Assembly (NCBI GenBank): GCA_036172245.1
Contig: JAYWIR010000063.1
Coordinates: 558,001 to 595,153, forward strand
Reading direction: 5' to 3'
Source: Raillietiella orientalis
Lineage: Eukaryota
Length of the DNA: 37,153 nucleotides
Positions 2,275-30,924 of this stretch are shown one piece after another. How positions within the stretch are numbered: position 1 is the stretch's first letter; each line of letters begins with the position of its first letter. The translations under genes were made by a program, and so were the position numbers. The notes beneath the pieces were generated by a model that was not told the DNA's origin, ran no database searches, and saw only the letters and a list, made by a program, of their open reading frames with translations.

Positions 2275-2332
2275 ATGCCTTTTAACCCTTGTACCATATA
2301 ATTATGCCTTTTAACCCTTGTACCATATAATT
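2275..2332. repeat. Perfect 29-bp tandem duplication (ATGCCTTTTAACCCTTGTACCATATAATT x2)
   Basis: Identical units at 2275-2303 and 2304-2332. Confidence 0.95.
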
Positions 2333-4500: not shown

Positions 4501-4565
4501 TGGCTCGCAAAAAGTCTTCGCCTTGTGTTTGATCATTCCCGTATAGCATGAATGACATTGCATTC

Positions 4566-4579
4566 ACGAGAATTTCACA
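4566..4579 (+). repeat. Left target-site duplication of LINE insertion A (ACGAGAATTTCACA)
   Basis: Matches 5075-5088 at 13/14 positions and directly abuts the start of LINE homology. Confidence 0.85.
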
Positions 4580-5074: not shown

Positions 5075-5088
5075 ACGAGAATTTCGCA
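5075..5088 (+). repeat. Right target-site duplication of insertion A (ACGAGAATTTCGCA)
   Basis: Matches 4566-4579 with one mismatch. Confidence 0.85.
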
Positions 5089-6001: not shown

Positions 6002-6009
6002 CATGAGGA
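6002..6009 (+). repeat. CATGAGGA, left copy of the 8-bp direct repeat bracketing the LINE mosaic (candidate TSD)
   Basis: Identical to 28549-28556; both copies lie at or near the edges of LINE homology. Confidence 0.5.
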
Positions 6010-7407
6010 AGGATTGTGGCAGTTTAGGGGTACCTTTCGCACGTTCTGGAATAAGTGCTTTCCAGTGGTGGTATTTTGCGCGGTGCGCTGCGGCTTGCTA
6101 CGGGTTTCGTAGCCGCCGCAGAGGCCCCTGCGTTGGATTCGGCCTTTGACGATTTGGGAAGGTACAGCGAATAGAGCTGGAAGTCTTCGCCCTGTGGCGG
6201 TCTTCCTCCTCACCTACCTTTCCTACCGGGGGTCTTCGGAATTTCCCGGTTCCTGGCTTGGAGAGGTGCTTACCATAACGGCAGCGAGGGCGGGCACGGC
6301 ACTTGTCGAGCCCTCGCGCCCCTTTTTAATTGGCTTCCCCGCCGTGATTTCTCCCTTTTGGGGCGTTGCAGGTGGGGACGCCTGTTGCTTAGCCGCGTAT
6401 TGCTTGGCTCTTTCGCCAAGACTTCGCGTACAGAGTTTTTTCTTGGGTGCAGCGGCCTTTCGTGAATTGGTCTCTTTGACGCGACGAAGTTCCGCTGCTG
6501 CCCTTTTTTTTGCAAGTACCATGCACTTTTTGATTTCGTGCCCGGTTTCTTTGCAATAGCGAAATTTAGGGGTGAGATATTCTTTCATTCGGTATCCCTC
6601 CTTGCCGTACTACTCGCACGCGCGAGTGTTGCCTATGAACCACAGGTGAACGACCGTGCTGTTCACCTGCAGCTGCTCAGGTACAACACGCCTGTTCGCG
6701 ACGGTGATCCGCGCGGAGGCTTGTCCAATGTGGACAGAGGGGAAATCCTTTAGAGGATTTGGCCTCCTCCACAGAGCGTGCACGGTGGCGAACTTCGCCA
6801 GCACACTTACGACATAGCGGTCGGAGATTTCCGGCTCGATGTTGCACAATTGGACGACAAACGAGTCGTCCATCACGAAAGGCAGGACTCCCTTGCCACC
6901 GATGGACAATGGAGTACGGAGAAGGCGCTGCACAAGTGCCGCGTCCTTGCACCGTATCTTTGTGTATTCCATCCTGCCCACAGGCATGATAGCAAGGAGC
7001 TCCTCCTCCCGAACGCCGATACGGACGAGCTCATCGTTGAGCTCACGCCCGATCCTCCTGCTAAGGGGCCCACTGACCTTATAACAAAGTGCGGGCATGT
7101 AGCCGGATGCCACATAAGCCTGCAACTCCGCATCGCAGGGTCCTGCTCCCTGGGAGGTGACGGCGGCGTAGCTCCTCACCGAAGGCGAGGAAACCGTCAC
7201 GGAGGATGCGGCCGCTTGCATTCCAATTGAATTGGATTCAACGGCTGACTTCTCCTTACCATTCTTAGAAGTGGCCATGCTGCACTACGCTGCTTCGTCC
7301 ACTTCCAAGAAGCACACAAGTGCGAGCGAAAACTCACGCACAAAGATGCTCAATCACGGACGCAAAGAGACGCGAAAACACGTCTGTACTGTGCGAGCGC
7401 AGGAGAT
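6010..7407 (-). pseudogene. Segment B: LINE 5'UTR + ORF1 (ATG 7278), disrupted and 3'-truncated
   Basis: 'RSYAAVTS' motif; degenerate knuckles 'CE*YGKEGYRMKE' and 'RYCKETGHEIKKC'; in-frame stops at 6610 and 6223; homologous to segments D and F. Left limit uncertain (6010-6040). Confidence 0.85.
7371..7385 (-). promoter_or_regulatory. DPE-like internal promoter motif AGACGTGTTTTCGCG in the segment B 5'UTR
   Basis: Matches 11806-11820 (GGACGCGTTTTCTCG) at a similar distance (~21-23 nt) from the element 5' junction; fits the RGWYV DPE consensus. Confidence 0.45.
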
Positions 7408-8758
7408 TTCTCACCCGGTCACGCCGGGGCGTTTATTCCATATAACTTCAACATAAACAATTATATAAAATAAACCAGTTGGAAACCATGCCCCCAACCG
7501 ACGACGGAACAAGAATCAATAGAAGATTGCTGGCACGCAGGCCAGAATAACACAGAACGGTGTGGGGGTACTGGGGACACAAACAAACAAAAACAAAAGA
7601 CAAACAAATCAATGGGGACACCGGGACAAGGGTCTTTCAGATGGCCGTGGTTCGCACCGGGATAATAGTAATGGCACCGGCATTTTAGCAGAGCGAGTGG
7701 GGATGGGGTATGGGTGGGCAAGAGGTCGCAGGGGTCACCGGATTACGCCGTTCTCAAAGGTCTGTATACCTGCGATGTATGCCGGTGATGTCCTCATTCA
7801 CCTTGTCACGAAGATGAGACCACCTAGCAGCCTTTTTCATGGATTCTGCTGCAAATTGGTGAGCCTCCCTTCGCTGCAATGACAACTCGAGGGCGTAGAG
7901 GGCCTTCACGATGGCGCGAATGCAACACATGGTTGCAACAATCGCACCTACCGAAAATCCATCCCTTCTGAAGAAGCGCCACAGCACATCAATTGCAGTG
8001 CCTCCCTGCGGCAGGATGGCTGAAATCAGCCTTCGCCACAGTTCACGGAGGTCACCGCAGTCCAGCAAGAGGTGCGTAAAAGACTCGATCTCTCCGCACC
8101 TCAAACAGTTTGGCAAAGCAGCACCCCCGGAAACGATGCTTCGCTGCCTATTACAGTGAAATGCACAATGTAAAAAGAGCAGCACATCTTGTTTCCATTT
8201 TAAGCAAAACATGGAGTTGTCCAGACAAACGGGGGGAACCACTATCTCTTCGGGGGTTACACTTAAATGTTCACTCCACCGAAGCAGGCCCTTCGCCCGA
8301 TTACGAGGAGTGGCAGTTTCCACCAGCTCCTTTGTCGTCCAGCCGCCGAGGAGCTTACTGACTCCCGCTTTTTTGCCGGAGAATTCCCATTCCGCCGGTA
8401 GGCTACTGTCGTCGCTTTTCCTCAGGGCAGACAGTGCTGCGGCGAGTATTGTGGCGGTTAGACGATCCGACTTCTTGTCCTGCATGACTTCGTCCATTGG
8501 ATGACTGAGGAGAAGTCGCAGGAGACGAAGATATTTCTGGCGCGTTCCTTCGGAAGCTGCCCAAGATGAAAAGGATTTCTGCCGCCATGCATTATTGTTC
8601 ATAGGGAGGCAGGAGATCCAACATTGGGCATCCAGCAGTGAGGAAAGCTGCCTCAGCGGGAAGCCAAGTAATATTCTGGTGTGCTGAATGTGGGGCAGCA
8701 ACAAAAGCAGTCCCTCGCTTCCCGTGCAGCGCCTTAGTATAAGGCGTGCAGGTAAGCA
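7408..8758 (-). pseudogene. Segment C: LINE ORF2 C-terminal ~335 codons (stop at 7754) + 3'UTR; same family as G
   Basis: 'CLRCGEIESFTHLLLDC' zinc finger; colinear with 13731-15083; 5' breakpoint at 8758. Confidence 0.92.
7412..7437 (-). other. LINE 3'-terminal motif copy 2: AATAAA-CGCCCCGG-CGTGA-CCGGGTG
   Basis: Read directly from the sequence. Confidence 0.9.
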
Positions 8759-9748
8759 ACTTTCGGGGTCACGGCTTCGGCAGCTCCCCTCTCGCCACAT
8801 GTGTTTGCGACGGCGCGCGCGGCATCAACAGAGGCTTTTTCTTGCGCCTTCCTTGGCGCGCGGGGCTGCCTCTTCACTCCGCCAACCTTTATAATGGGGA
8901 AGTGGGAAGGATCGCGCGGTTTGCGCTCCTTCTTCCTTCCCCCAACAAAGGTCCAGCCATCCTCTCCGCCTTCCGGTTTGCCTCGGTTGGGTGCGAGGGC
9001 TTCCAGGGTCCTTCGCATCCTTTATAAGGCCTCGGATACGGCAATGGAAGCCAGTGTCTCCTTTGCCACGTCTGCCTTTTGCACCTCCGTACCGGAAGGA
9101 GCGGGAGGAGTGGCGGGATTCTCGGAGGTCGCGCGAGGCTTTTCAGCCTTTGCTGGCGTTCAACTCGCCGTGGCAGGCTTGCCTGTCGCGGGCAAAGGGG
9201 CGCGCGACCCCTTTTTCGACGCTACGGTGGTCTTCCCGGGCGTGCCACCGCTATTTCGCTCCGGAGCAAGAGCGGACGGAAGCGGTGGTTTTGCAGCCTG
9301 CCCGATGTTATCGGCGAGCTGGGTCGCTCGGGGCTTTACTGAAGCAGCTTGGAGAAGCTTCTTGTCCTTTCGCGCAAGTTTTTGTGGAGCATTGCTCCGA
9401 GAATCGCCCGCGCAAGCGGACTTTTTACTTCTCTGCTGCGAATCCTCGTTCGCGCCGGATTTCTTCCCCGACGACGGGGCGGAAGGAGTCGGCGCGCACG
9501 ACGATGTTGCAAGGAGGTTTCTCGTCCTCCTCTTTCGTTTTAGCTTGGCGCACTCGTTAATCGAGTGACCGAGCAGCTTACAGTATCGGCAACCGCGTGT
9601 TGGGCACTTCCGCGGACGGTGGCCCTCCTTCACGCAGTTGCCGCAAGCGGGGGTTTGCCCGGCAAACCGGAGATAGACGACGACCTCACCGAGGAGGATC
9701 TGCGAAGGCATGAGCCTCCGGTCGTCCATGGTGACGTGCGCCGTGGCG
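8759..9748 (-). pseudogene. Segment D: internal LINE ORF1 fragment with two CCHC zinc knuckles
   Basis: 'CGNCVKEGHRPRKC' and 'CRYCKLLGHSINEC'; two in-frame stops; 'QEKAS' stretch shared with the ORF1 of G. Confidence 0.9.
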
Positions 9749-11785
9749 ATTCACACCCGGATGTGCCGGGGCATTCATTTCAGTGAAATAAAAACACAGG
9801 AAATTTTGCGTGGCAATCCCCAAAGTTCACCACTCCAAAACAGCTTTATGGTTACCGGCTGCATGCCGGAGAGGTCCTAGCGATGCGCGGGTATAAGAAA
9901 TAACAAACAAAAAGAAACAAAAAGTTCAAATGTGGGGGGGGGAACAAATGTTTTAGGGGTAGCAGGGCAGGGAAGGGATCACGTTGCGCGTGGACAGGTC
10001 CTCTAGATCCTATTCAGGATCCGAACAAGCTGAGTCCTTTCAGCGCTTGAGTGGCGCCACTTGCAGACACTGCGTGCGAAAAGGCGAGTCCAGTGTAAGG
10101 CGTTGCCGGTTGGCTGACGCCTTCTTCTGGTGGCGTTCCAAGCCACCACTATTCCTCTGATGCAGCAGAGGACTTCTACGCTAGCGGGCGGGGACAAGGC
10201 GTCACTACAGAAGAGGCGCCTTAAAACGTCCTTTGGGCCGCATTGTCGCAACTCCAGGATCGCCGCGAGACGATCCCACAAAGGGCGGAGGGCTCTGCAC
10301 TCAAAGAGAAGGTGAAGGAATGTTTCCTTTTCCCCACACCGGTCACAATTAGGATCCACAGTCCCCCGGGTGGTGTGATGCAGGCGTGTTTTGAATAGTA
10401 ATCCCCAGAGTACCACAAGCGACGCCACATCCTGCCATTTCAGGGGGAGGGATGCACTGTTCCAGGACTCTGGGGGCCACTTCACCTCCTCCGGAGATAG
10501 TCCGAGTAGCTCGCCCCAGCGTCGAATTCCGTTGGGCGGCACACTCGGCGTCGCAGCGTCAGCTAGCTGCCGAGATGTCCACGCCTTTATCGATTGTGTC
10601 CTGCCGCCTATGGTGCAGGACAAGGTCCATTTCCCATGCTCGCTACTGTCCCTGGCATTTTCAAGGAAGGGCAGCACTGGGGCAAGGGGGGTTATCAGAG
10701 CCCACAGAAGCTGGTCATGGGACTGCACGATCTCCTGCAGCGTCCAGCGGGCGTGCCTTTCCAGGCAAGTGTTCCTTGTGCCCGCCGGAACGTGGATCTT
10801 TTCCCAGGAGGACACTGACTCGTGCAACCAGGCAGAGTAGTTCTTTGGGAGGCAGGAGATCCAGGCGTTTTCCCGAACCGCAACGGCCATGCGTCGCAGG
10901 TGAGAGCCACAATGTGCTCTTCTGCCGAAGCGCGCAGACAGAAACGACAAAACTCCGCCAGATCCGCAGGTTCGTTGGGCCAGGAAGCGTGCTGGAACGC
11001 ACCAAGGCGTATCCCACAATTCGGCCGCGAGGGCGGGAGTCCTGAACTGGAGTTGCAGTTCCATGCGCTCCAGCGTAAGTACGCCAAGTCCACCGTCCTT
11101 AAGTGGAGCGCACAAGTCTTTGAGCCTCACACGGGACCTCCCTTTGGAGAAGGCGAAAAAGGGGAACCGCAAACGCGTTCCACACCGCGGCCTGTTTCTG
11201 CAGGTAGAACTTGGTTTCTTGGAACAAACCGATCGCCAACGCTGCCTTTTGGAGACGGTCGGACCAGGCTTCTGCTGCGCAGTATTCCCCCAACGGAACG
11301 CCAAGGTACTTGAAGCACCTGCACGTGGGGATCCCCAAGCGGATCCAGTCCGACCGTCCAGCCCACGCCGAGCCAACACAAGCCATCGTTGCCTTCGCCC
11401 TGTTCTCCTCCAGGCCCGTCCCGCGGCGCAGCAACTCGAAGAATTCCTCGAGTGCACTTGCCGGGGTGAACCCAGGAAGCAGCAGCAGAAGATCATCTGC
11501 ATAGGCCGACACGGCTGGCGTGCCGGCACACGAGCTCGGTAGTGTTGCCAGAGTTACCCTGTATGCCCTCAGCACCAACTCGAAGTAGATGCTGAAGAGC
11601 AAAGGGTTCAAACTGTCACCCTGCCGGATGCCGCGGCGAACTGGCACGCCGTACACGTGCAGGCCGCTGAAACCAATATTTATATACGCGTTGCGCCAGC
11701 AGGAACGCAGGTTAGACCGGAGCACGGACGGGAAACCCATGCGTTCCAGGAGCTCCAGAAGGAGATCCTGGTCGACGCAGTCGAC
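9749..11785 (-). pseudogene. Segment E: 5'-truncated LINE ORF2 (RT core to stop at 10003) + 3'UTR; same family as L
   Basis: 'DCVDQ', 'RGIRQGDSLNPLLF', 'AYADDL', 'KYLGVPL', 'GGLG', 'CDRCGEKETFLHLLFEC'; frameshifting deletion near 11150. Confidence 0.95.
9754..9779 (-). other. LINE 3'-terminal motif copy 3: AATGAA-TGCCCCGG-CACAT-CCGGGTG
   Basis: Read directly from the sequence. Confidence 0.9.
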
Positions 11786-11805
11786 CGGCTTGCGTGCTCC
11801 AGGGT

Positions 11806-11820
11806 GGACGCGTTTTCTCG
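11806..11820 (+). promoter_or_regulatory. DPE-like motif GGACGCGTTTTCTCG in the segment F 5'UTR
   Basis: See 7371-7385. Confidence 0.45.
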
Positions 11821-11913
11821 GTGCTCCTCGTGCCAGGAAGTCTCCCCCAGTGCAAGCGTCGTGTGGTTCGGTGGTCGATCAGGCAGAGATGCCTGACGCG
11901 ACCACCAGGGATG

Positions 11914-11996
11914 GCCAGGGGACAGCGGCAACGCCGCCCCCAGAGGCGATGGAGAGCCAGGGGGCGGCGGCAACGTCGCCCCCAGAGGCGATGGAG
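11914..11996 (+). repeat. 42-bp coding tandem duplication in ORF1 of F (QGTAATPPPEAMES / QGAAATSPPEAMEV)
   Basis: Two units 42 bp apart. Confidence 0.9.
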
Positions 11997-13726
11997 GTGG
12001 GGGCATCCGCCCCCACAGAATCGGTCCCCGCTGCAGCGCGGGCGTGGAGCGCCGTTGTGTCGGCGCCATCGCCTGCAGCCGCGGCGGAATTGTCGGCCTA
12101 TGTAGAGGAGGGGTACAACCCCTCATTGTTCTACAAGGTAGGCAATTTATATTCTTTAGAGAGCGCGCGCCTTCTCGAAGGGCATGCGCGCTGTCGATGT
12201 GAAAGAGGAGGAGCTTAGCGCTATGACCATCCGCAGCGGGGGTCAGTACGTTGAGGTCATCTGCGAACATGCAGAGCTGGCCCAACGACTGCTTAAAACC
12301 CTTGTTGTGATGGGGAAGCGCAGGCTCCTCCCCACTACGGCGGACCGCAGCATGGTGGTCCACCTGTTAGGCGTAACCGCGCGAATACGCAAAGAACAGG
12401 TTGGCGCCGCTTTGGAACAGTTCGGAACGGTCCACGCGCAGTGGACGAAAGTTAGTCCTTTCGAGGACTACACGGGGCTGCAACACGGCCTCACTGCTGC
12501 GCGCGTGACCGTTCGGGAGGGCTGCACTCTTCCCCACAAACTGGTGGTCAAAGGCGAAACCGTCGACCTCTGGTATGTGGGGAAGCCGAAATACTGTGGC
12601 TATTGCAATACGTCGGGCCACCTCAAAAAGAGGTGTCCCAATGTGCAGTGCCAAGTATGCGGCACAATGGGCCACACGAGGGAGGTGTGCCCAAAAGCAG
12701 CAGTGCGGGTGGTTTCCAAGAGAAACCTTAAAAAACGCGCCCGGCTTCTGCAGAAAAGACTGGCGGCGAAAGCTGCCGCGAAGGCTGTGCCACCCGCGCC
12801 CAAGGCCCCGGCCGCAACCGAGACCCCGACGAACAACGCCGAACAAGTCGAGGGAACAAGCCAGGAGCCTGGGTGGCAGGTGGCTACGGCCAAAAAATCA
12901 AAGAAGGAGAGGAGGATGGAAAAGAAAATCGCCTACCAACAGAAGAAGAAAGAGCAGGGTAGCGCGATAATTAAAGAGTGCAGCGTCGTTGTCGAACGCG
13001 TTCTCGATGTTGCCGAACGCTGCCGGAAAGAGCTCGCCGCTACCGACGACCTCCCCTCGGTTGACACAGTCAACAGCGAGGGGAGCGAGCCGGCGGCGGC
13101 GTCCGTCATCGACACCACCATCGACGACGTAGCCTTCGCGCGAGCCGCGGAGGAGCTGGCAGCTTCGTTGCAGACAGAACCCTCCAAGGCTGGCAAGAAG
13201 GCCGTAAGGCGTCCGGCCTCCCCTCAGTAGTCCCGCACTTCCGACCCCGAGGTGGAGGCCGGAAGCGCAGCCTGCGTTTCCACGGCACCGCGCAAGAAGG
13301 CTGGACGTAAGTCCACAAAGCCAAGGAAGCTCGTCTCCCCCGTCGAAGGGGAAGAGATGGCTTCCGCAAGCGAGGGTGCCATGAGCGTGGGAAACTCTCG
13401 GGTCCCCTCGCCCGAGAGACTCCCACGCGCGGACACGGAGGGGATGGAGGAGGTGGAGGCCGAACAGGTGCCTCAGGTGCCTGAGAAGGCCGAAACCCCC
13501 ATGGACATCCCGCCCGCCTCGCAAGAGGCGGGCTCCCCCACACCTTAATCTTCCCAGCAGTAATGCCGGGAATCTCCTCCTGCCGTCGTCTGCGCATCGC
13601 CGTTTGGAACGTGAACGGCATGACAGACGCAGGCAGGAGACGAGACATGGCCGCCCTTCTGGAGTCCTACGACCTTGCGCTGCTGCAGGAGATCCACGTG
13701 ATCTCCGCAGAACAAGCGCAAAAGAT

Positions 13727-16700: not shown

Positions 16701-18350
16701 TCCGCGCGCCTGGAAAAGGAGCGGGCCTGCAGAAAATCTCTGCTGTTAAGTACGCCCTCTCCGAAGCCGCGCCGAAGCTGGTGCAAGTGAAACCGTCAGC
16801 AGAACTCGCGGACCGATCTTTTCAGATCGTCGCAGTCCTCGAGCTCACTTATGGCAGAGCCAAGGAGGTACTGGCAAAGACGCTCAGCCGCCTCCGGGTG
16901 GCTCAGCCAGTCTGCCGGCATCGTCCAAAAACAGTTTGGAAGCCCCTTGCCTGGCGGGAGAAACTTGAACTCGAGCCTGTTGTGGTCTGAAAGCACGGAC
17001 GGCACGGGCCCTCTCCCACCCACTTGAGAGAGCAAGTGTTGTTCAAGGTAAACGTGGTCCGAATTTGCTAGCATAACATTGTCGCTAGCGAACAAGTTGC
17101 ACGCGTGGACGGACGCGCACATCTCTTTTGGTAGGAACTTTTCCCTTTTGTGGGATCTATTCTCGGAAAGCAGGTGGACGTTGAATTCCCCCGCAATGAG
17201 ATGGGCCACAGTAGGGTGCGATCGAGTGAGCCACTAACTTTGAAGGGTACCGAAGAACTCAATCCTTTCGGCCCATCGTCCAGCACCGCTCGGCGCGTAC
17301 ACGTTGGTTACGACAAGGTCGATCGAGTCCAACCACTTGAGTACAAGCTGTCCCACTCGACCTTCCGTGTCGAAACGAACGCTGCGCACCGCTCCCGCCA
17401 AAGTTCCTCACACGAGGAAAGCGACGCCGCACGTACGCGCAACGCCGCACCTATGAAGTAGCGTTCCGCCCGCGCGCCGTTCGATTTCGGCAGCCTGCTC
17501 TTCGGAGATGCTGTGAATCTCCTGCAGGAGCGTCAAGTCGCAGGCGCGCAGAGCGTGAGCCACTAGTTGCCTCTTCTCGTCGTGTTGAAGCCCGTTGACG
17601 GTCCAAGACGTCACAACAACACGACGAGAAGACGCGATTGCCCTGATCGCGGCTGGGAAAGCGTGCTCGCCTCACCCGGCAAGCGGGAGGTAAGCAGCAC
17701 GACGGGCTGGAGGGCGCGGTCGCCACCGGCCTCGAATGTGCTGCACGTAATCGAGTGCTCCTCCCCGGGTGCAGAACCTGTGGATTCCGGGGTAAGCACT
17801 CGCCGTTCTGCGGTGAGTGTGTCACGCCTTAGGGCTTCAACCCAGCGGGCGCTCGCTCCCGGGCGAGTAACGCGTCGTTCAGCGGCGCAATGGGACTCCT
17901 TTACGGAGTCTGATGCTCGCACGATCGACGAAAGCTTGCATCCGTCCGATTGCACCGGAATGGTCTTCTCGGTGGTTACAGAAGCGGACTTGCACGCGTT
18001 GGAGGCGCTGGCTTTTTCCTGGGAAGAGGCACAAGCTGCGCGTGGTTTCGTATTCGCGCGACTGCTTTTTCCTTTGGAAGAGCTCAAAGATGGATGTTGC
18101 GAAGCTTCTTTTGGAGATTTTTCTTTCCTCCTTTACACAACCTTACATTCGCCTTCGCGATTTTCGGAGGCTTTCGCGACAGTAGTTGCGGAAACCTCCG
18201 GGATTTTCGCTGCGTTCTCTAGGGGAGCTGCGTTCCCTACGCCTTTTAAAGGCGGCAACGGAGTCACCTTCTTGACCGTCGGGAGATTGCTCCTCTCCTG
18301 CCGATTCAATGAACCTGATTCGCGGCTCAAAGTATTGTGCGCACGACAAC
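13727..18350 (-). pseudogene. Segment G: ORF1 C-terminal half + nearly complete decayed ORF2 (~17647 to ~14080) + 3'UTR
   Basis: APE 'SWTVNG..LLQEIH..NVYAP..AGEFN..SDH'; RT 'RPIT..NSDVK', 'DLHKASDCV', 'RQGDSLSPLLF', 'AYADDL'; finger 'CSRCGEIESFPHLLLDC'; several stops and frameshifts; probable start codon now ATC. Confidence 0.95.
13731..13756 (-). other. LINE 3'-terminal motif copy 4: AATAAA-CGCCCCGG-CGTGA-CCGGGTG
   Basis: Identical to copy 2. Confidence 0.9.
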
Positions 18351-21300
18351 TTAATCAGTTAATTGTGATCGTGTGTGCCCGGAGAGGGGAAGTTTCCAGA
18401 CGAAACTACAAAAGAAGCGCCAAGGAAATCGCCGCGGAAGACCTTCAGTAGTCCCGTGCAGCATGACCAGCTGCCAGGATGCAGGCACCTGGAGGAGGAG
18501 TGGAGAGACCGTCGTCCCCCATGGAAGCCATGGAGGTAACGTGCGGCAACGGCGAGGCGGTGGCAGGCATGCCGAGGATCGCGCCCGCGGAGGGCTTTGC
18601 TGCGCCGGCGGCGGCGACGCCAAGGGTCGTGCCCGCGGCGACGACGGCGGAGGTCGTGCCTGCGGCGGCGATGCCGAGGATCATGCCCGCGGCGGGGAAG
18701 GTTGCGCCTGCGGCGGCGATGCCGAGTGTGCCGCCCGCGGCGGCAACGGTGGCGACGTCGAGGGTTGCGCTCGCGGCGGCGGCGTCCCAGGCAGAACCCG
18801 CAGGCGTCCACGCGGTTCAGGGCGAGACGCCATCTTGTTCGGCTGCGGCGGCGCAGCCCTTTTCCTATGCGTTGGTGGCGGCTGGACAAGTGGGTGTCCA
18901 CCCACCTAGAAAATTCGGAAAGCCGCTATGCGGCAAAGTCCAAAAGGTGGATCGGACAATCGTGGATTTAGGGCCGAATGTGAAGCCCATCATTTTCAAG
19001 ACTGAGCTGATCAAATTCAATAATATCAGGGAGGTGTATCTGTCCCTCGATAAAACGGATATTAATTTTGATCGCATAAAAGCGATCATATCGGCAAATA
19101 ACGGGTTCACAGTCTTCACAGACTGTGAAAATCTTAGAGAGCGATTGATCCAGAAGGAGATCAATATACAAGGGAGGATGGTTTCTGGTATTGGCAAAAT
19201 GCCATACACAACCGTCTTTCTGAACGGCATCTTCATCCTCACACCGCAACTAACGGTGTAGAATTTTTGGAGCTGTATGGGGAAGTTCTGGACCTTGAAT
19301 TCCAGAACTTCTCTGGAAATATATTTTCTGGCGACATGATCGTCAAAATGAAGTTGAAAGAGGGAGCTGTGATCCCTGGATTAGCCGTTCTTGACGAACA
19401 ATCCCATTGAGTGAACGTGCGTTACCGGCAACAACCGATATTCTGCACCGGGTGCAAGCAGTTTGGTTATAGAACCGGCGCTTGCCCAACGTGTCGTTGT
19501 TTCCGCTGCGGCAAAGTAGGACATCAAGTCCGAAACTGCCCGCAGCCGGAGGTGTGCTCCTTCTGCAAGAAACACGGACATGCTAAATGGAGCTGTCCGG
19601 AGCTTGCAAACTGCAGAAGGATTCGAGGTCTCTCTTCCGTGAGAGAGAGAAACACCAAGAAGACGGAACAGCCTTAGAAGGCAGGAAGGCCGAAGAAGCT
19701 GAAACAAGCCGTCCCGGTATCGCAACACGGCTTCATACAGGTAGGGAAGGAAGGAAAGAGGAGGATACTCGTCAAGGATCAAGAAACCCCTCTTATCCTG
19801 GAAGGTAAGGAGCCGGAAGGCCAGAAGATAGAGTTAGCGCAAAAAGGCGCGGAAGAAGAAATATCCGAAGCTACTCCGGTGTCGCAAAAGGCCCTGCAAT
19901 CTACGGAGGAGCTGGCATCACTGGCTAATGAAGTCCTAGAGGTGCAGAGCGGTCCCCAGCAAGAGAAAGTCTTGCAGAGGATCTGCAATGCACAGGAGAA
20001 GGTCAACCAGGTTGTGAAGGTCACCGAGCGCGAGAAGCTAGAGGAACAGCTTCTCGACGTAAAGGCGAACTTCTGCGCCAAGGTCGAAATAGAGGCGCCA
20101 TCTGGAAAATTGATCGCGCGTGCCGAACACTGCACGGAGAAGGCGGAAGTAACCGACCTCACCGGAACAGAGAGTGACGCCGGCAGCGAGAAGCCAACTG
20201 CTTCTTCATTGTCTGGAAGAGCACGCTCTCTCAGACAGAAGAAGCTCAGGAAGGCCAAGAAATAGGTCTTCCCCTTTTATGGCCTCTTCCCTATCGACCG
20301 CCAGGTGGCTGAACATCGCCTCCTGGAATCTGAACGGTGTGGTCGACCAGGGAAAAAGAAAAAGGATTGTGCGGACCATCGCACAACAAGACATAGTGTG
20401 CCTGCAGGAGACCCACAAGATGGATCTCGAGATTAGTCAGCAAATGGAACGGCGATTTAACAGGCAGATGTTCGTCAGCGAGGAAGAACGGAACACGCAG
20501 GGTGTGGCGGACCTAATCAAGAACAACTTGGCTTCCACTATTCTGGAATTGTTCTGTCCATAACCGAAACGAATCATCGGCGTGCAACTGTCCTGGTCCG
20601 CTACTGTTCACCTCATCCTGGTGAACGTGTAGGGGCTGCACAGGCTGAAACATCTTTGTGCGGAGGCACTGCATGCAGCACTCCGTGAAAAGGTCGCCCC
20701 CAAGGACGTCGTGATTGTTGCAGGCGATCTCAACATATTGGATGAGATCACTCATTCCCAAGACGCCAGAGGAAGGACGGCGTATCGGTGGCTATCCAAA
20801 GAGTTCGGACTGGTGTGGCCAACAGCAAGTCACAAGCCGATCGATCGCGTCCTGCACAGCACCGAACTAGGGAATCGCATTCAGGGTTTTCGAGACACAT
20901 TGACCACTCTGTCCGATCTCCCGTTGGTGCGGTTTTCCCTAAGAACGGAGAATCCTCGGCGGAGGCAAGGCACCAGGGCGGCGCTCATCAGCATGCCCGC
21001 CTGGTTCGAAACCCATCCCGGACATCAGGCAGTCCTGGAGACGATTCTGAAGGCAACAACAATCCGAAGAGTCGCCGACTAAGACAGCCTGAAACACAGG
21101 ATACACCTGTTAGCAAACATGCAGTTCGGGGATAGGCGCTTGAGGCAGGAGGCGTACCGGGAGCTGAAAATCCAAGATCGCATACTCTCAAAGTACTTCG
21201 ATCAGTACGAGAGTAAGTACGTCTTCAAAAACATAAAAGAGAAAGTCGGCGTGCTGGAGAAGAGAAATCTGGCAACAGATATCTTCTGCACCCAGTACGA

Positions 21301-23565
21301 CGGTCAAGAGCGACAGTCGTCCGAAGATATCGTGGATGCCTTTCAAAGGCATTACACGAAACACTTTAGGCGACAACATCTCACTCGCTCTAGTCAACAG
21401 GCCTTTCTGAGCTACCTCGAGAAGAGGACCGACGATCTCCAGCGGAACAGACTGGAGGAGGAATTCTCCGAAGACGAGGTAAAGACTGCGTTTAATGAAC
21501 TACGCAAGGACGTGGCAGCGGGCCCTGAAAGTGTACCCATCACTCACTATCAGCGGTACCTGCATGCGTAACTGCGTTTGTTCCACCAGTTGACCCTCTG
21601 CATCCGCGAAGAAGGAAGACTTCCACAGTGCTTCTACGAGAGTAGGATGAGATTGTTTCCAAAAGGAGGCGACCTCACGCAGGTCGCTCAATGGAGGCCA
21701 ATCTCGATCCTGAACTCGGTTGCCAAGTGGTTGGCGAAGATCTGGTCCAACCGCTTAGGCAAGGTCATGTCGAGGCTCATCTCTGCGGTCCAAACGTGTG
21801 CAGTCCCTGGTCGTCACATGTCGGACAATGTCAAGTGTGCCCAGGCCACCGTCGGACTCAGCCGATACGTCGGCGAGAATCTGGCGCTGGTGTTCACTGA
21901 CATGGAGAAGGCTTTCGACTCCATCGACCATGGGATGCTGCTGAAGGTTCTGGAGAAGCTAGGCCTTCCGGAACACTTCAGCATTTTCGTAAGGGTGGTA
22001 CTCCAGAACCAGTACTGCCGAATCAAAATCAACGGCCAGGAGACGGCAGCAATCCGGATGGAACGGGGAGTCCGGCAGGGCGACTCGCTAAGTCCGATGC
22101 TGTTCGTCATCTACATGGAGGCGTTGTCGTCCTTTATCGAGAAGAGCGGACGACTGCAAGGCAAAACAATCGATGGCCAGCGTCTTACCCATCTGGCATA
22201 CGTTGATGATCTACTCTCCTTTATCAAGGGAGAAAGAAATCAACGAGCGTTTCTGGATGTGGTAGACCTGATGGATCAAAACCTCGGTCTAAAGATCAAC
22301 GCCCAGAAAAGCCAGCTCTTGCCCGTTGGAATTCTCGATCTCTCCACTCTAGCGGGGAGAGGATTCCAAACGGTGGACAAGGCCAAGTACCTGGGTGTCT
22401 ACATTGGCGACGTCTCCGCGTCGAAGATATTGTGGACCGAGATCCTAGGGAAAACGGCCAAGGAAGCAGCCAAGTACACCCGAACGGACCTTGGAATGAA
22501 GCGAAAGGCCAACATATGGAACGGAGTACTCCTTCCAAAAGTGCTCTTTGGGGCGGCCTTCGCGAGGATGAACAAGGACACCACGAGGAAGTTTGACAAG
22601 CTGCAGAGAAAAAGAGCGGGCCACCGGCAATGCGGGACTCTCATCCTACTTTGCACTCCAAAGCCCCATCTGCCACTGCGGACTTCAGATTCGAAGGGCG
22701 GCCAAGCTCGTGAAGACCAACTCGGAGCGGATCCTTGTACGCCCCTCGAACGGTCCTGCCTGGCTGCAGGAAACCGTCCGCACGTGGGCGATGAATCAGG
22801 AGCAGAGCCCGCAACACGAACGAATAGCTCTGTTCGGGCCGCACGCCCATTGCACGCTCCGAGAAATCATCGAGGATCCCCGAAGGAAAGCGTGGGCACA
22901 AAGAGCCTCCCTTGCTGCGGTACTGCCTACCCTACAAGAACATCTGGGCAGCGACGTCGCGGCACAATGGGAGGTAACTTTCAAGATCGACGAAAGGGAG
23001 AAGAAGATCGTGGATTGGAGAACGGGTCAGCTAAACAACGCTGCGACCCCGAGGACCACCCCACACGGACTCTTGCGCTGGGGCGAGCTATTGGATGTTC
23101 CGGAGGAACAACTGGAGTGGCCCTCGGTGCTCATGGACTCGCGCACCCTCCCCTTGAAGTGGCAACAGTCGGCACTCCTGGTGTTGCTTTGAGGCCTACC
23201 CTGTAACGCCCGCCGACACCACTGGACGCTGGAGGGTGTCAACCCCAATTGTGTCAGGTGCGGGGAGAGGGAATACCTCCCCTTCCTGCTAGTGAAATGT
23301 GTTGCCCTCCGTCCCCTGTGGGAACGCTTTGCCGCGGCCCTGGGGATTCCCGGAGGCAACCCCAGAGACGCTTTGCGCCCCCACTTCTTCCGTGATGCTC
23401 TGCCTCCGGCGGCCTTGCTTGCAGCCCTGTGCTGCCTACGCGGGATCGTCGTGGCCTGGAACAAAGCGACGGGAGGGTCCAGCGACACGGACGCCAACGT
23501 GTACGCCGCCCGTTTCCTGATGATGGCGACGCGATGGCCCCATTTGGAACCCACAGCTTCAGCTT
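18351..23565 (+). pseudogene. Segment H: near full-length decayed LINE; 5'UTR, ORF1 (~18479-20265, three knuckles), ORF2 (20279 to ~23565, cut a few codons before its end; no 3'UTR)
   Basis: 'FSYALVAA'; 'CTGCKQFGYRTGAC', 'CFRCGKVGHQVRNC', 'CSFCKKHGHAKWSC'; APE 'SWNLNG..CLQETH..AGDLN'; RT 'WRPISILN', 'DMEKAFDSIDH', 'RGVRQGDSLSP', 'AYVDDL'; finger 'CVRCGERE'; stops at 20563, ~20632, 21082, 21571, 23192; deletion near 22615. Confidence 0.95.
18560..18785 (+). repeat. Degenerate GC-rich coding minisatellite in the ORF1 N-terminus of H (about 5 units like AYGCCGAGGRTCRYGCCCGCGG)
   Basis: Encodes MPRIAPAE / TPRVVPAA / MPRIMPAA / MPSVPPAA / TSRVALAA. Confidence 0.8.
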
Positions 23566-24413
23566 TATTCAGGGGTGCCTCCGAGGAGGAGGATGCGCTT
23601 CCGGCCCCCAGGTCGAACTCACCTGTGGGGGCCTTTTTCGCAGTAGCCGGCCTTCGCCCGGCCTTGCGCGAAGGATTCTCACGCTCGGCCAGCGTGGCCG
23701 CGAGCTCCTCCGCCGCCTGCGGGAACGCGGCGTCCGCGGCTTCGACCGCCGCTATGTCGCGCGGCTCACCCTCTGTTTGCACAGACGGTTCGCCGTCGCA
23801 AACTTCGGGCGCGACGGAAACGGCGAGGGGAGGCTCGTCGCCCCGGGTGGCATCCTCAGGAACGACGATACGTTCCAATGCCACCGTGCACTCGCGTAAG
23901 GTTTTCGAACGCGGCCCGGGTTTTTTTGCCTTACCGATCGACTTCTCTTTCTTCTCCTTTAAAGGAGCTTTTTTCTCTTTTCTGGCTGCTACAAGTTGCC
24001 AGCCCTCTTCACCTTCCGCCACTTGGGAAGTTTTATCCTCCGTCTTTTCTTTTGGAGGTTGAGGATGTGGCAGCTTTTGCCGGACAGCGTCCGCCTTAGG
24101 TCTTGTGACCTTTACTGCGCGTTTCCCCTGCGCCTTTTTCGCGGCAGGAGGTACCGGGGTGGGGCGTTTTGGGCACACACGTCGAACGTGTCCCTTCTCG
24201 CACATGTGGCATTGGATGTTAGGACACCTCTTGCGAAGGTGTCCTACGGTATCGCAGTAGCCGCAATACCGGGGCTTTCCCACGTACCAGACGTCCACGC
24301 ACTTTTTCGCGACCTCTAGCTTGTGGGGAAGCCCACAATCCTTATTCACGGTTACCCGCACTGCAGCCTGGCCTCCGAAATGGCTATTAAAGCCTTCGAA
24401 GATTGTTGGATAG
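23566..24413 (-). pseudogene. Segment I: internal LINE ORF1 fragment (F-like)
   Basis: 'WYVGKPRYCGYCDTVGHLRKRCPNIQCHMCEKGHVRRVCPK', 'AAEELAATL'; open frame. Confidence 0.92.
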
Positions 24414-25704
24414 CGAACCCTCGCCATCGCAGCGAAGATGTGGAGCACCGCTTGGTGCATTCCGGCCCGCCTTCTGGCCAGGCGTGTGTTTCGCTGCGAA
24501 GGACTCGCATCGTTTCGTCTGTGCCCTGGCCGGAAGATTCGAAGATGCGGTTCACTGCTCGGCCGCATGGCAACCCTGGCAAAGGAGAACGACTGGATGG
24601 TTTGTGGCCCCACCAATTCCTCCGCTTGGCTAAAGAAGACTGCTCGCACCTGGGCCAAGCAGAACCAGAGGTGCGAAGACCGGATGAACTACCTGCGAGT
24701 CGGCCTTTACGCCCGCTGAACTCTGCGTGAAATTCTTGAATTTGCACCGAGTTGCACGTGGACGGAAGGCACACCCCTTGTTACGGCGATGCCCTTCCTC
24801 CAAAGTGCGCTTCTCGAAAGCCGGAAGCCAAGGTGGCGAGTCTGCTGCCGTATCGCAGGCAGAGAGAAGATGATGAGCGGCTGGACCATGGGAGAGATGA
24901 CAGAAGCAACGACCCCTAGTCTCCAGCCGCGTGGATTAAGAAGATGGGGCGAGCTGCTCGGCATTCGATTGGATGACCTGAAGTGGCCCCCGGTTCTACT
25001 TGGATCCAGGATTCTTCCCCTGAAGTGGCCAGAATCGGCGCTTCTGTGGCTGCATTCGGGTTTACCCTACAACGCGCGCCGCTTCCACTGGACGCGGGGA
25101 AGAGTAAATCCTGCGTGTGCCAGGTGTGGGGAGCGAGAGTCGCTCCCCAACCTCTTAGTTCAATGCCCTGCCGTCCGGATTCTTCAGGATCGTCTTAAAA
25201 CGGCACTTGGGATACCGGATGGTGGCAATGTTGAATGTGTCTTCAGTCTTGTCTTCGTGCGGGACGCCCTCAGTCCAGCCGCAGCCCTGGCAGCACTTTG
25301 CTGCATTCGTGGTATCGTGGCGGCCTGGAGTGATGCCGAAGATGAAGACTGCATCGTGAGGGACGTCATCTAGTATGCTTCTTGCTTCCTGCAGAGAGCT
25401 ACCCGATGGCTCCATCTAGGAAAACTGAAAATGGAACTAGAAGGCATCCTGCAAAGGATGGGCGCTCCCAGCTGTTTTCTGTGATCCCTTACCGGCCCTT
25501 CAAACTCCTTTTGTTGTTTGTTTTTCTCTTTTATTTTATTTTTGTTTTCTCCCCCATCCCCCTCCACTGCCGAGGAGAGCCACACCGGGCTGCGTCCCGG
25601 TGTCCCGGCAGTTCCGGTATTGCGTGGCCGTCACTGGGGCCTTGTACCACGTTCTGTATTGACTGTTGAAATGTTTTTAATAAACGTCCCGGCGTATCCG
25701 GGTG
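24414..25704 (+). pseudogene. Segment J: LINE ORF2 C-terminal region + 3'UTR (fourth family)
   Basis: 'WSTAWCIPAR', 'LPLKW', 'CARCGERESLPNLLVQC', 'LCCIRGIV', 'GILQRM'; stops at 24719 and 25373. Confidence 0.92.
25679..25704 (+). other. LINE 3'-terminal motif copy 5: AATAAA-CGTCCCGG-CGTAT-CCGGGTG
   Basis: Read directly from the sequence. Confidence 0.9.
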
Positions 25705-27080
25705 GCATCGCCGAAACCTGGAGGAAGTTGATGGAGGGGAAACTGGTCACAGAACTCTCGGACTGAGCGTTTTATTTTGTCCCAGTCAGCGAGAGTCTGC
25801 AGTTCGCAACTACGCAGGAATGCGCGCAAATGTTCGCGCGCTCCTGCGAGTCGCAACCAGTCCCCCGGCAGGCGCCACGCTTCGGAGGGTGGACCTCTGT
25901 CCCGCGGATGGATGTTGAGCACTAGCCGAGGGTGATCGGACAGCTCCGACGCAAGTGCTCCTCGTGTCCCCACCCGCGTACACAAGTGGTTATCCAGGAA
26001 CACGTGGTCTATTCTGCTTCTTACCCCGGATTCATCGGCCAACAAGTTGCGTGTGTGCATAGCCGCACACAACTCGTTGACGAATTGTGCTCTTATGTCG
26101 GGCGCTTCCGACAGCAGGCGGACGTTGAAGTCTCATGCTATCAGATGCGCCCGCCGCACGCCTGCTTCAGCCAGCCAGTCTTGCCGCAGGGCTTCGAAGA
26201 ACGCAGTGCGTTCTCCGCGCCTGTGGCTGGTGCATGGCGCGTACACGTTCGTAACTACGAGGTCGATCGATTCGGACCACTTGAGGACAAGTTGCCCAAC
26301 TCGACCTTCCTCGTCGAAGTGTGCACTGCGCACCGCATTAGCGACGGCCGGCTTCAGCAGAAAGGCCACTCCGCGGGAGTGGTCTCCTCCACAACGCCAT
26401 AGTAGCCTCCCCCCTGTGAGCCTCTCGATTTCCTGGACGTCCTCTCCTCTCAGGGCATGCACCTCTTGGAGAAGTGCCAGGTCGAAAGCTCGCAGGGTGT
26501 CAACCACGCTACGCCTCTTGCTTTCGCTACGCAGCCCGTTGACATTCCAACAGGCTATACGTAGCTGCCGGCAAGAGGCGATTCCACGCATCATGCTAAT
26601 GATGGTGGTGGCGATTGTGTAGCCGCCTCCTGTTCGGGAGGCGGCTGGTCGATGTCCACCTGTATAGGCTGTGTTCCGAAGACGACCGGAACGTCGGCAG
26701 CCGGACTGAGATCGATGGGAATGTCGCTCCGTACACTCTCCAAGGAAGGATCCCGCGACCTCGCGGACATCGCCTCCTCGCTACCCGAGCGCATCCCCTC
26801 CTCATCAGCCCGAGGGGGAGCGACGCGCATAGGGTTGCGAGACTTCCGGCCCGCCTTCCTCTTCGGGAGGGCGACGGTGGGAGTGTTTCCTGCTTCCGCC
26901 TCGGACTCGGAAGTTTCCGGGCCCTTGACTTCCGCCGGACGTCTTATGACCTTCTTTGCAGCCTTAGGCGGCTGCATTAAGGTGGCCGCGAGTTCCTCCG
27001 CCGCCTTTGCGAAATTTTTCTCGTCGCTGGTGCTTGCGTTCTTGCCGCAGATTTCCTGCGGAGGTTCCGCGGCGTTAGCG
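25705..27080 (-). pseudogene. Segment K: ORF1 C-terminus (stop 26591) + ORF2 APE domain (ATG 26594), truncated at both ends
   Basis: 'AAEELAATL'; 'CWNVNG..LLQEVH..NVYAP..IA*DFN..IDHVF..SDH'; ORF1 stop and ORF2 start overlap as ATGA. Confidence 0.93.
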
Positions 27081-28278
27081 TTTTCACCCGGATATTCCGG
27101 GGCATTTATTTCGAAAAACAAAAATACATTAATTTTTCGAGTGGAGAACCCGGAGGTGCACCACGCCAAAACAGCTTACTGGCTCCCGGCTCTATGCCGG
27201 AGAGGTCCGTCCGATGCGCGGGGGTTGGGACAGAAAAAACAAAACAAACAAAAAGTTAAAACACGGGAGGGGATAAATGTTTTAGGGATGGGAGGGCAGG
27301 GAAGGGATCACTTTGCGCCCGGATAGGTCCTCTAGATCCTATTCAGGATCCGGACAAGCTGAGTCCGCTGTGCGCCTAAGTGGCGCCACTTGCATACAGC
27401 TCGCACGAATAGGCGAGTCCATCGTAAGGCGTTGTCAGTTGGCTGACGTCTTCTGGTGGCGTTCCAAGCCGTCACGATCCCTCGAATGCAGCAGAGGATT
27501 GCTACAGAAGCGGGGGGGGACAAGGCGTTACTACAGAAGAGGCGCCTGAAAACGTCCTTGGGGCCGCATCCGCGCAAGTCCAGGATCGCCGTAAGGCGAT
27601 CCCATAAAGGACGGATGGCACTGCACTCAATGAGAAGGTGGAGGAAGGTCTCCTTTTCCCCGCACCAGTCGCACTGGGGATCCACAGCCTCCCGGGTGGT
27701 GTGATACAGGCGTGCTTTAAAGGGTAAACCCCAATGCATTACAAGCAACGCCACCTCCTGCCATTTAAGGGGGAGAGATCCACTGTTCCAGGACGCTGGG
27801 GGCCACTTCATCTCCTCCGGAGATAGTCCGAGTAGCTCGCTCCAGCGTCGAATTTCGTTGGGCATGACACTCGGCGTCGCAGCGTCCGCTAGCTGCCGAG
27901 ATGTCCACGGCTTTATCGGTTGTGTCCCTCCGATTACGGTGCAGGACACGGTCCATTTCCCCAGCTCCCTACTGTCCCTGGCACTGATGAGAAAGGGCAA
28001 CACTGGGGCAAGGGGGGTTATCAAAGCCCACATAAGCTTGTCGTGGGACTGCACGATCTCCTGGAGCGCCCAGCGGGCACGCCTTTTCAGGCAAGTGTTC
28101 TTTGTGCCCGCCGGTACGTAGATCTTTTCCCAGGTGGAGACTGACTCGTGCAACCATGCCGAGTAGTTCTCTGGGAGGCAGGAGATCCAGGTGTTCTCCC
28201 GTACCACAACGGCCATGCGTCGCAGGTGAGAGCCACAATGTGCTCTTCTGCCGACGCGCACAGACAGAAACGACAAAA
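27081..28278 (-). pseudogene. Segment L: LINE ORF2 C-terminal 314 codons (stop 27332) + 3'UTR; same family as E
   Basis: Colinear with 9754-10952; 'CDWCGEKETFLHLLIEC'. Confidence 0.93.
27085..27110 (-). other. LINE 3'-terminal motif copy 6: AATAAA-TGCCCCGG-AATAT-CCGGGTG
   Basis: Read directly from the sequence. Confidence 0.9.
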
Positions 28279-28548
28279 GCCTTCCTCGTCGGCATTTGGC
28301 TCAGAAGTCTCCTTTTGAGGCTCCTGTCCCGTTTGCACGACTTCTTCTGAAGTCGGCTGTTGATCGCTGCTTTTTTTGCTTTCTGCCTTCTTCCCCTCAT
28401 TTGTCGAAGGGGCTAAAGGCGTTGTCGCGGCATTTTTCGGTCACACAGCACTAGTGTGGCCCTTCGCGCTACAGGTTGGGCATGTGGCATCCGGGCATCT
28501 CTTTTTCAGATGCCTAAATGTGTTGCACAGCTCACAGTACTTTTCTTT
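28279..28548 (-). pseudogene. Segment M: short LINE ORF1 zinc-knuckle fragment (not in the ORF track)
   Basis: Manual translation 'KEKYCELCNTFRHLKKRCPDATCPTCSAKGHTSAV*PK...NADEEG'; homologous to F and I. Confidence 0.85.
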
Positions 28549-28556
28549 CATGAGGA
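28549..28556 (+). repeat. CATGAGGA, right copy of the candidate TSD
   Basis: Begins where the ORF1 homology of M appears to stop. Confidence 0.5.
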
Positions 28557-30924
28557 GACACTAAAAGTGCGCTGGTGATTCGTTGTGGGTACACGAAACA
28601 GCCAAAGCACAGGGATACTGTCTTTATGAGGCGAGGCAACTTCAACCGCGTACCTTCAAGCAAGATCCACTTCCTTAAACTAACTGTCTCTCGGAACATC
28701 TTCTGGTTTTGTTGCTCGACCCCTTTTATTTCTTTGTAGGTTCCTCATCGAAATAGATCAGTAAACTCTGTGTCAACTGATAAGCAATCTTGGAGGATTT
28801 GTAAGGTTCAGGATCCGCGTGAAAGAGTCCGCAATTGCGCCTCCCATTGCTGCTTGAGGTATACTCACGTCGGAAAGATTCGGACTGCAAGCGCTGATCC
28901 AAAACCTGTATCAAGCTCTTAACATTCTCGATTCGCACGCCTGCAGGCATTTTAATACGGTGATGCGTCGGCAGCGAAATTACGCTGTCGTTGCTAAGAG
29001 GTACTCACTAGAAAATGAGGAACTACTGGAAGCAGCTTCTAACGTTAAGCATTCTCCTCTCAAGTTGATGCACAGTCGTGAATCTTCTCCGAACTGAGGA
29101 AACCAGTGTTTGACGGTAGAAGGCAGTTGGCTACTACAATTCGTTGTGGGGATTGACTCCTGAAGACCTTTTTCTTCTACGAATTTGGTACCATGTGCTA
29201 AGGTACTAGCAGTTCAAGAGGTGAAGGTTGACAGTTAACAGGTAACTGAGCATGGATCTGAGCATTCCCACCGCTGGACTGCCTGTATATAGGACAAGAA
29301 GTAACAGTGTCCCACGAGCTGAGTGGAAGATGTCCTGCATCATGACGTGCAGGAGAAAACCAATTGGAGTCTACGAGAAGAGAGCAATTCAGTGCCCTAG
29401 CAGCTAAAACTTCCTTCATTGGACCGCCACGGTGAGGCGACATCTAGGGTGTTAGTTCTGTGGAGCTTCTGGTCCTTTTTTGTTGTTTGGGCGCCTCGAT
29501 GCTCTTTTCCTCATGGAAGCCTGCATTAGTGATTTTGATTCCCTTTGCATCCCGGTACAACAAACAACGGTATCCAGTCCCAGGAGAGGTTGCCTTTCTG
29601 GAATCTGCAAGGTACGATTCAAAGAAGTACATCTCTCACCTGCCCATGAATTGCGGTACACAACATAAACCGTTACGTTCACGGCAACATTTCCATGAGA
29701 GATGATTTTCGGATAACGAAAGCGTGGTCTCGTGGAAATGGAGAGGGAACACTATACAATGCAATACCGAAATACAGCTTGTCAAAGTGAGACAATAAAT
29801 GGCAGTCACCTGCATCCGGTATTCAAGTAGCATGTACGCATGTGTGCATGCATCTCACGTAATAAGCATAAACTCACCCCATCTTGACGATCTGGATTAT
29901 ACTTCCCTTCTGGTAGAAATCGAGAGAAGCACCGAGAATCCGCGAAAGACAGGGAAAAAGCCACAATCGCGTGGGGTTCCCCGAATCATTCCAAGAATGG
30001 CATTGTATGAAAATAACATTGAGTGCGATGTGTTGCGGAGATGGAATGCACCATGGAGCCTTTACCCGGCCGAAGTTATGGCAACTATTGGTGGCATCCG
30101 TGCCACCATCGGGGCTCGATTAATGCCGAAAATTACCAGTCGGTGAATGGGAAACACTAGAAGGGGTACACCAAGACTACTGCAAAGTGATCTGATTACG
30201 AAATGGGGGCCACGGAGGAAATCTATCGCATCCGGGTTGCTGGTTCGAGGCCAATTGCAAAGAAAGACTCTGTGATCGTTTTCCATTCTACATCTTTGTT
30301 TCTATTGCTCCGATTCCACATTCCTATTTGCTTCGTAAGTTTTCCATGTTTTCTTTTGGGTTCAGTTGCACGCAGAATGATTAGAAGGATTCTCAGCTCT
30401 TCTCACCCGATTTATACAGTTTTCTTGTCATTTGTTCGCTTCATTGTTTGGAAATCTTGTTGACAAGGGTTGAGTGTGGATGCATCTTGCTAACCATTGC
30501 GGTGCTCTAACCGTCGTTTGAAAAGTGGAGAATCAACTGGTTTATTTTAAATAAAGTATCGCGAACAAATGACGAAAAATTGGTTGCTGTTATTGTTTTA
30601 GTGGGGGTCTCTCCATACGGTTTTCAGAAGAAGCTGCATCTCTTGCATAATATTTAAATCATTTGTTTTTTCTTGCAGGCTTCCATTCCTCTTAGATTTT
30701 TAGCATAAAGCAGAGAGGAATTATGAGCGCGTTCAAAAGAAGACGGAAACGAAGGTACAGGGGCTCGAAAATGTCCCTGGTGCTGCCTTCTGCAATGTCT
30801 AGGGTGATTGACAGACGATCGCACATGATACGCAGGGCGGCACACTTCAACACATTACTTCAATTCGCTTTCACGCCGAAACCTTGCAAGGAAAACGATT
30901 ATTGTGGAAGGAAATCCTGGAGAA

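Follow-up and report, generated by a model that had tools for sequence, protein, structure and literature searches.

A 22.5-kb block of LINE pieces from at least four L1-like families in Raillietiella orientalis, and its possible origin in serial replacing insertions

We analysed a 37,153-nt window of the Raillietiella orientalis genome (GenBank assembly GCA_036172245.1, contig JAYWIR010000063.1, positions 558,001 to 595,153 of the forward strand) in which twelve pieces of long interspersed nuclear elements (LINEs), here called B to M, follow one another from 6010 to 28548; all coordinates refer to the window as a whole. The pieces were delimited by self-blastn, which returns 14 pairs, by tblastx against the best-kept copy and all-against-all, and by a scan for CCHC knuckles, together with sensitive blastn of the open reading frame 1 (ORF1) regions and translations. 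They lie in the order B−, C−, D−, E−, F+, G−, H+, I−, J+, K−, L− and M−, so that nine are on the minus and three on the plus strand, with six strand changes along the block. GC content is at least 0.52 in 21 of the 22 one-kb bins between 6001 and 28000, and flank bins are at 0.37–0.51 save the bin that holds a separate LINE fragment, A. A Pfam scan of the 257 stop-to-stop frames of at least 70 residues places LINE domains in 11 of them (RVT_1 in four, Exo_endo_phos in four, zf-RVT in two and zf-CCHC in one), and one further frame gives a weak, probably spurious match to TrkA_C. We see no host-like DNA between the pieces at a resolution of about 300 nt, with the G/H border not placed within 18130–18478. 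The block consists of LINE pieces only, from at least four L1-like families, and the wider region is itself LINE-rich, as A and another LINE, N, each lie within 2 kb of the block.

Judged by their predicted domains, the elements are APE-type non-long-terminal-repeat retrotransposons, that is, LINEs of an L1-like kind. An AP-type endonuclease (Exo_endo_phos, 20153–21079) precedes the reverse transcriptase (RT; RVT_1, 21572–23203) on one strand of H, and tblastn finds the same order in G. A C-terminal zinc domain is recognised in L (zf-RVT, 28.1 bits against a cut-off of 27.5) and, below that cut-off, in E (25.8 bits), and CCHC knuckles of ORF1 appear as a zf-CCHC match in H and as eight exact CX2CX4HX4C matches at five loci (F, H, I, M and D). 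The C-terminal domains sort into four families, C/G, E/L, H (with N) and J (with A), which are 44–56% identical to one another and about 87% identical inside the pairs C/G and E/L. Coverage of the element across 6010–28548 is U-shaped, with six to seven copies of ORF1 (knuckle region), about three of the RT and six of the C-terminal domain; this contrasts with the usual steady climb toward the 3′ end. Depth in a DNA read run, X1, compared over 2000–21999, is 0–1.3 in flank bins and 5–82 in LINE bins, and the spread between the bins of D (1–3) and those of H (35–82) points to large differences in abundance or age among the families.

All six 3′ termini in A, C, E, G, J and L (5045–5076(+), 7396–7437(−), 9750–9779(−), 13718–13756(−), 25679–25707(+) and 27076–27110(−)) end in AATAAA..CCCGG-N5-CCGGGTG plus 3–8 nt, with a shorter stem-loop in A. 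A poly(A) or A-rich tail was sought at each of the six and is found at none, nor is there any A run; the 3′ end is of a variant kind, which makes L1-like a provisional placement among the LINE clades. The terminal element is kept despite the low C-terminal identity between the four families. Its stem is invariant across copies and so offers no covariation; the stem-loop looks like a 3′ signal common to the families and read by their RT. The closest database match to the RT frame of H is 35% identical, and a query with the ORF1 protein returns no relative in the database searched. A metagenome scan with the 3′-terminus pattern yields nine loci, none with a blastn match to the window; one of them alone, L002, gives scattered short tblastx matches, which we read as chance.

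The junctions between pieces, listed in plus layout in Table 1, carry most of the argument. C, E, G, J and L each adjoin an internal position of another LINE with an exact 3′ terminus; of the six pieces that extend into the C-terminal domain, these five keep the exact terminal motif. The neighbours on the 5′ side of these 3′-intact pieces do not resume, with M and K around L as the sole possible case: M stops near the QEP motif of ORF1 and K begins about 65 residues further on in the coordinates of F and I, so that the two are readable as one element split by L, with residues present in both F and I missing between them. Target-site duplications (TSDs) are not found around C, E, G, J or L, where the best flank match is reached in 948, 388, 250, 126 and 183 of 1000 shuffles, respectively; fragment A, our positive control, has an 11-bp TSD, ACGAGAATTTC, whose score is reached in 2 of 1000 shuffles. 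The combination of a TSD with a resuming target that marks classical nested target-primed reverse transcription (TPRT) is found at none of these five insertions. Six pieces (B, D, F, H, I and K) are 3′-truncated, a form that primed insertion alone does not yield. The E border at 11784 has outside support, as five X1 contigs from the family of E diverge past that base.

Table 1. LINE pieces, flanking repeats and neighbouring LINEs in the window, with the junction on the left of each feature in plus layout (UTR, untranslated region)
Feature	Coordinates	Strand	Content	Basis	Junction on its left
A	4578..5076	+	stand-alone 5′-truncated LINE 3′ fragment outside the block; control for normal insertion	matches H C-terminus and J 3′UTR; canonical 3′ terminus; 11-bp TSD ACGAGAATTTC	
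CATGAGGA, left copy	6002..6009	+	inside fuzzy left border zone; GC climbs over 6000–6100		
B	6010..7395	−	5′UTR and ORF1 only; 3′-truncated in or just past ORF1, at the host border	tblastx to ORF1 of F, D and I; ATG at 7284; no 3′ terminus motif	host against ORF1 interior
C	7396..8757	−	C-terminal domain and 3′UTR, intact 3′ terminus; 5′-truncated at RT/C-terminal border	blastn 84.5% to G 13715–15083 (whole match); coding 87.1% (global alignment); 3′ motif	B 5′ start against C 3′ terminus
D	8758..9749	−	internal ORF1 fragment with two CCHC knuckles, both ends cut	CCHC scan; tblastx to B, F, H and I; low X1 depth	C 5′-truncation against D ORF1 tail
E	9750..11784	−	part of RT, C-terminal zinc domain, intact 3′ terminus	RVT_1 and zf-RVT matches; blastn 84.8% to L (whole match), coding 87.2%	D ORF1 against E 3′ terminus
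F	11785..13717	+	5′ region, ORF1, first ~60 endonuclease codons; cut at start of G 3′ terminus	CCHC scan; Exo_endo_phos N-terminus at 13485–13766	E 5′ border 11784 against F 5′ start
G	13718..~18300	−	ORF1 tail, endonuclease, RT, C-terminal domain, intact 3′ terminus; 5′ border uncertain (18130–18478)		F endonuclease N-terminus against G 3′ terminus
H	~18301..23575	+	nearly whole: ORF1 from ATG 18479, endonuclease, RT, C-terminal domain; final ~200–290 nt of 3′UTR missing (compared with A, J and N)	zf-CCHC, Exo_endo_phos and RVT_1 (E = 8e-32) matches	G ORF1 tail against H 5′ region
I	23576..24416	−	internal ORF1 fragment, both ends cut	CCHC scan; translation; 58% identical to F 12487–13303, inverted	H minus its final ~200–290 nt against I ORF1 tail
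J	24417..25707	+	C-terminal domain and 3′UTR, intact 3′ terminus		I against J 5′-truncation
K	25708..27075	−	ORF1 tail and endonuclease; cut exactly at J 3′ terminus	Exo_endo_phos match; 62% identical to G 16758–17648, 60% to F 13116–13696	J 3′ terminus against K endonuclease
L	27076..28278	−	C-terminal zinc domain and 3′UTR, intact 3′ terminus	3′ motif; zf-RVT 28.1 bits; coding 87.2% identical to E	K ORF1 tail against L 3′ terminus
M	28279..28548	−	ORF1 knuckle fragment, 5′-truncated at right border; may be upstream part of K	CCHC scan; 67% identical to F 12589–12696; homology border 28548/28549	L 5′-truncation against M
CATGAGGA, right copy	28549..28556	+			M 5′-truncation against host
N	~30395..33512	−	solitary older LINE in right flank, H-related; both ends uncertain	67% identical to H 19826–22455; RVT_1 match; 4.8 frame disruptions per kb	

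On the 5′ side, the borders of J (24417), C (8757) and L (28278) fall within about 120 nt of one another at the boundary between the RT and the C-terminal domain, and any three of six uniformly placed borders cluster so with a simulated chance of 0.028; the cluster may mark a pause or a template-exit hot spot. No shared target motif is seen among the six junction targets. We also observe AGCGCA at equal offset past the 3′ terminus of C and of G (7385–7398 and 13700–13717); the terminus of this family may be about 10 nt longer than drawn, or both insertions may have used target microhomology.

Several further ways of pairing pieces or reading borders were tried and set aside. A TSD of H against the G/H border zone has a score reached in 106 of 300 shuffles, and a decayed TSD seen by eye around L is no better than the 183 of 1000 given above. 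B, F and H yield no convincing alignment as carriers of a common 5′UTR. D-C and M-L were rejected as single elements with internal deletions: the ORF1 tail of G finds no DNA counterpart in D, against the 87% identity of C and G. We also dropped G and I as parts of a single element interrupted by H, since one ORF1 tail block occurs in each of them. Nor do C, J and L fit a shared splice acceptor or internal start, their borders being about 55–65 nt apart, not identical and without AG at the border. Twin-priming inversions fit the layout of I/J and of F/E and would call for paired pieces of one family; they were dropped as well.

An 8-bp sequence, CATGAGGA, lies at both edges of the block. The right border was placed independently, as the match of M with F and I sets in at 28548/28549 and similarity is at background level upstream, and the right copy therefore adjoins the LINE exactly. 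The same 8-mer occurs five times in the window where 1.5 are expected, a count reached in 3 of 100 shuffles, and when loose border zones of 121 by 61 nt are searched with mismatches allowed, 660 of 1000 shuffles match equally well. We regard the pair as most likely a coincidence; as a sign of genuine duplication it is suggestive but not decisive. A sequence-only reading of the window had already noted these positions and the end of ORF1 homology at the right copy, together with the apt caveat that an 8-mer match may be chance. Its description of the block holds up equally well: an independent segmentation reproduces its twelve pieces in the same order and on the same strands, its count of at least four families and its statement that no host DNA separates them, and our searches bear out the missing internal TSDs, the TSD of stand-alone A and, from the ORF1 coordinates of F and I, the singling out of M/K as the only possible resumption.

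Differences between E and L fall 40/25/56 over the three codon positions (p = 0.003) and those between C and G 47/31/51 (p = 0.07), and C and G are 80.4% identical in the 3′UTR against 87.1% in coding sequence, from which part of the divergence of both pairs arose in active lineages. E and L, having diverged under selection, are not two copies of one RNA, and the C/G pair is read likewise. Reading frames have decayed unevenly: by a minimum-disruption count, C, L, I and E pooled show one break over 4.6 kb, whereas G and H show 16 over 9.1 kb (P = 0.010, rising to 0.028 once three natural ORF borders are left out; the grouping is post hoc).

The reading we favour, with a probability of roughly 0.55, makes the block a LINE nest that arose piece by piece, through many separate target-primed insertions into an expanding patch. 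Its founders would have been about six older copies lying close to one another (B, D, F, H, I and M-K), and later copies would have entered by TPRT from nicks inside the older ones; the 3′ junction of each new copy would have stayed exact and its 5′ end would have joined the chromosome at a distant point, replacing kilobases of older LINE and any host DNA between. Two further deletions would have made the host/B and H/I junctions. We infer serial replacement from the asymmetry of the junctions, in which exact 3′ termini survive in five of six cases and the 5′ sides never resume: damage at insertion predicts this asymmetry, whereas random later deletion should strike termini as often as targets. 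For human L1, target deletions and insertions that bridge breaks are described in PMC1920257, and such endonuclease-independent insertions and L1 target deletions share with the block the absence of TSDs, the loss of target and the apparent bridging of distant ends; the block differs in keeping intact 3′ termini and in having other LINEs as targets. In its ingredients the block also resembles ordinary transposable-element nests made by TPRT, with 5′-truncated copies that carry exact 3′ termini inside other LINEs, several families on both strands, and a solitary neighbour, A, with a normal TSD. It departs from them in lacking TSDs at all five internal insertions, in having no more than one split target (M/K) that resumes, in its six 3′-truncated pieces and in retaining no host DNA.

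Those departures are also what the serial reading has to pay for. Its weak point is the need for all five secondary insertions to lack TSDs and to bring kilobase deletions, with two more deletions besides, and the survival of no host DNA across 22.5 kb asks for many special events. Other observations weigh against it as well. If the 8-mer search is anchored, allowing the right copy 3 nt of leeway around the border and confining the left copy to 5975–6047, only 168 of 20000 shuffles match and none of 477 real flank zones does, though the anchored and the loose zones alike were fixed post hoc. The starts of B and F, 111 and 104 nt upstream of the ORF1 ATG, coincide exactly with junctions and resemble complete 5′ ends set against other LINEs, an arrangement also expected from end-to-end template jumping. 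Coding identity is equal in the two same-family pairs (0.871 for C/G and 0.872 for E/L), as a single age would predict, and polarised branch lengths of 30/35 and of 36/23 (p = 0.12) show no significant asymmetry.

Several of these points would also fit formation in one or a few steps. LINE RNAs of at least four families, some whole and some broken, would have been copied into cDNAs and linked through end-to-end template jumps and end joining, and the 22.5-kb product would have sealed a single staggered break whose fill-in left the 8-bp CATGAGGA duplication. Such an origin would account for the missing internal TSDs, the failure to resume outside M/K, the pieces set end to end without host DNA and the six 3′-truncated pieces; the B/C junction, a 5′ start against a 3′ terminus, has the form expected of a jump from the 5′ end of one RNA to the 3′ end of another, the right 8-mer sits exactly at the ORF1 homology border, and three plus-strand pieces in twelve are compatible with random ligation (P = 0.07, one-sided). 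We nevertheless consider it distinctly improbable, and the single TSD-bracketed event proposed in the sequence-only reading does not find support here. The interior of B's ORF1 lies at the left border with no LINE 3′ terminus motif, where a minus-strand composite would need one, which excludes a target-primed start there, and a TSD from one primed event at that border does not fit. The divergence of E and L under selection and the uneven decay of frames speak against a single event, M and K around L fit plain nesting, and the five copies of CATGAGGA and the loose-zone shuffles take weight from the flanking repeat. Known template-switch chimeras of the U6-L1 type have all their parts facing the same way and finish with a LINE 3′ end, and the block has neither a single orientation nor a LINE 3′ terminus at its border. 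In Magnaporthe, as described in PMC2104539, bipartite and tripartite chimeras consist of two or three directly fused parts with a clear 14-bp TSD; the block is like them in that retrotranscripts are fused with no DNA between, acceptors begin at an exact 3′ terminus and a candidate repeat flanks the whole, and unlike them in its 12 parts over 22.5 kb, its six strand changes, the missing border terminus and an 8-bp repeat of doubtful weight. Were the block nonetheless of such an origin, it would be about four times as complex as the tripartite chimeras described for Magnaporthe, and it would mean that LINE machinery can assemble and integrate very long multi-template concatemers, which would be new.

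A specialised trap, in which a piRNA-like (PIWI-interacting RNA-like) small-RNA source or a centromere-associated LINE cluster is preferentially targeted or retains its insertions, is unlikely in our view, and is compatible with accretion. In animals, piRNA clusters pack fragments of many transposon families densely on both strands, and the block is likewise a two-strand multi-family archive, here of LINEs only, set within low-copy DNA by the X1 depths given above. The nearest LINE-only clusters described are those of the L1-type Zepp and ZeppL elements of green algae, which are reported to grow by insertion into existing copies and which, as PMC8226300 describes them, are mostly 3′ ends. Compared by that description, the block shares the LINE-only composition and differs in its at least four families on both strands and its many ORF1-only pieces, with six pieces representing 5′ parts; moreover the six junction targets have no common motif. 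The idea in the sequence-only reading that one site repeatedly captures LINE copies remains plausible in so far as it comes close to serial insertion, and it is the dedicated trap that we doubt. Least probable of all, and highly so, is an assembly artefact in which different LINE copies were falsely joined through shared sequence. The 3′ termini of same-family pieces do match exactly over runs of about 40 nt, and X1, which hardly covers the flank, lends the junctions no spanning support and shows no empty allele, but the window contains no N and most junctions join non-homologous coordinates of different families, unlike misjoins based on overlap. Repeat collapse is unlikely as well, since no two pieces exceed 87% identity and most fall at 44–67%.

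Around and within the block we record some features that stand apart from its origin. The left flank at 601–4500 is strongly depleted in G on the plus strand, at 0.149 against 0.295 for A, 0.275 for C and 0.281 for T, and its GC skew falls as low as −0.45. This flank gives no Pfam match and no LINE similarity even after G-to-A recoding, and its reading as a G-to-A hypermutated LINE was rejected, as recoding yields only one weak 62-nt match. Apart from the RVT_1 match of N, neither flank has a Pfam match, and the longest frames there are not coding-like by eye. N itself is far more decayed and AT-richer (GC 0.49) than the pieces of the block. Rfam and tRNA scans of the window return no matches. 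GC-rich tandem repeats at 11914–11996 (units of 42 nt) and 18569–18780 (units of 27–48 nt) sit in the Ala/Pro-rich N-terminal parts of ORF1 in F and H, and an open frame of 553 residues at 23030–24688 on the minus strand runs through I and onward via the antisense of the H C-terminus, where its openness is probably chance in GC-rich DNA.

Overall, the block is mostly an ordinary structure of a known sort with unusual junction statistics. If it is a serial palimpsest, it is an ordinary transposon nest whose value is mainly descriptive, one that brings to light LINE families for which the protein database searched contains no close relative, all sharing one conserved terminal stem-loop. The junctions suggest that insertion into LINE arrays in this genome often replaces DNA rather than adding to it, and such replacement would help explain how LINE islands stay clear of host sequence.

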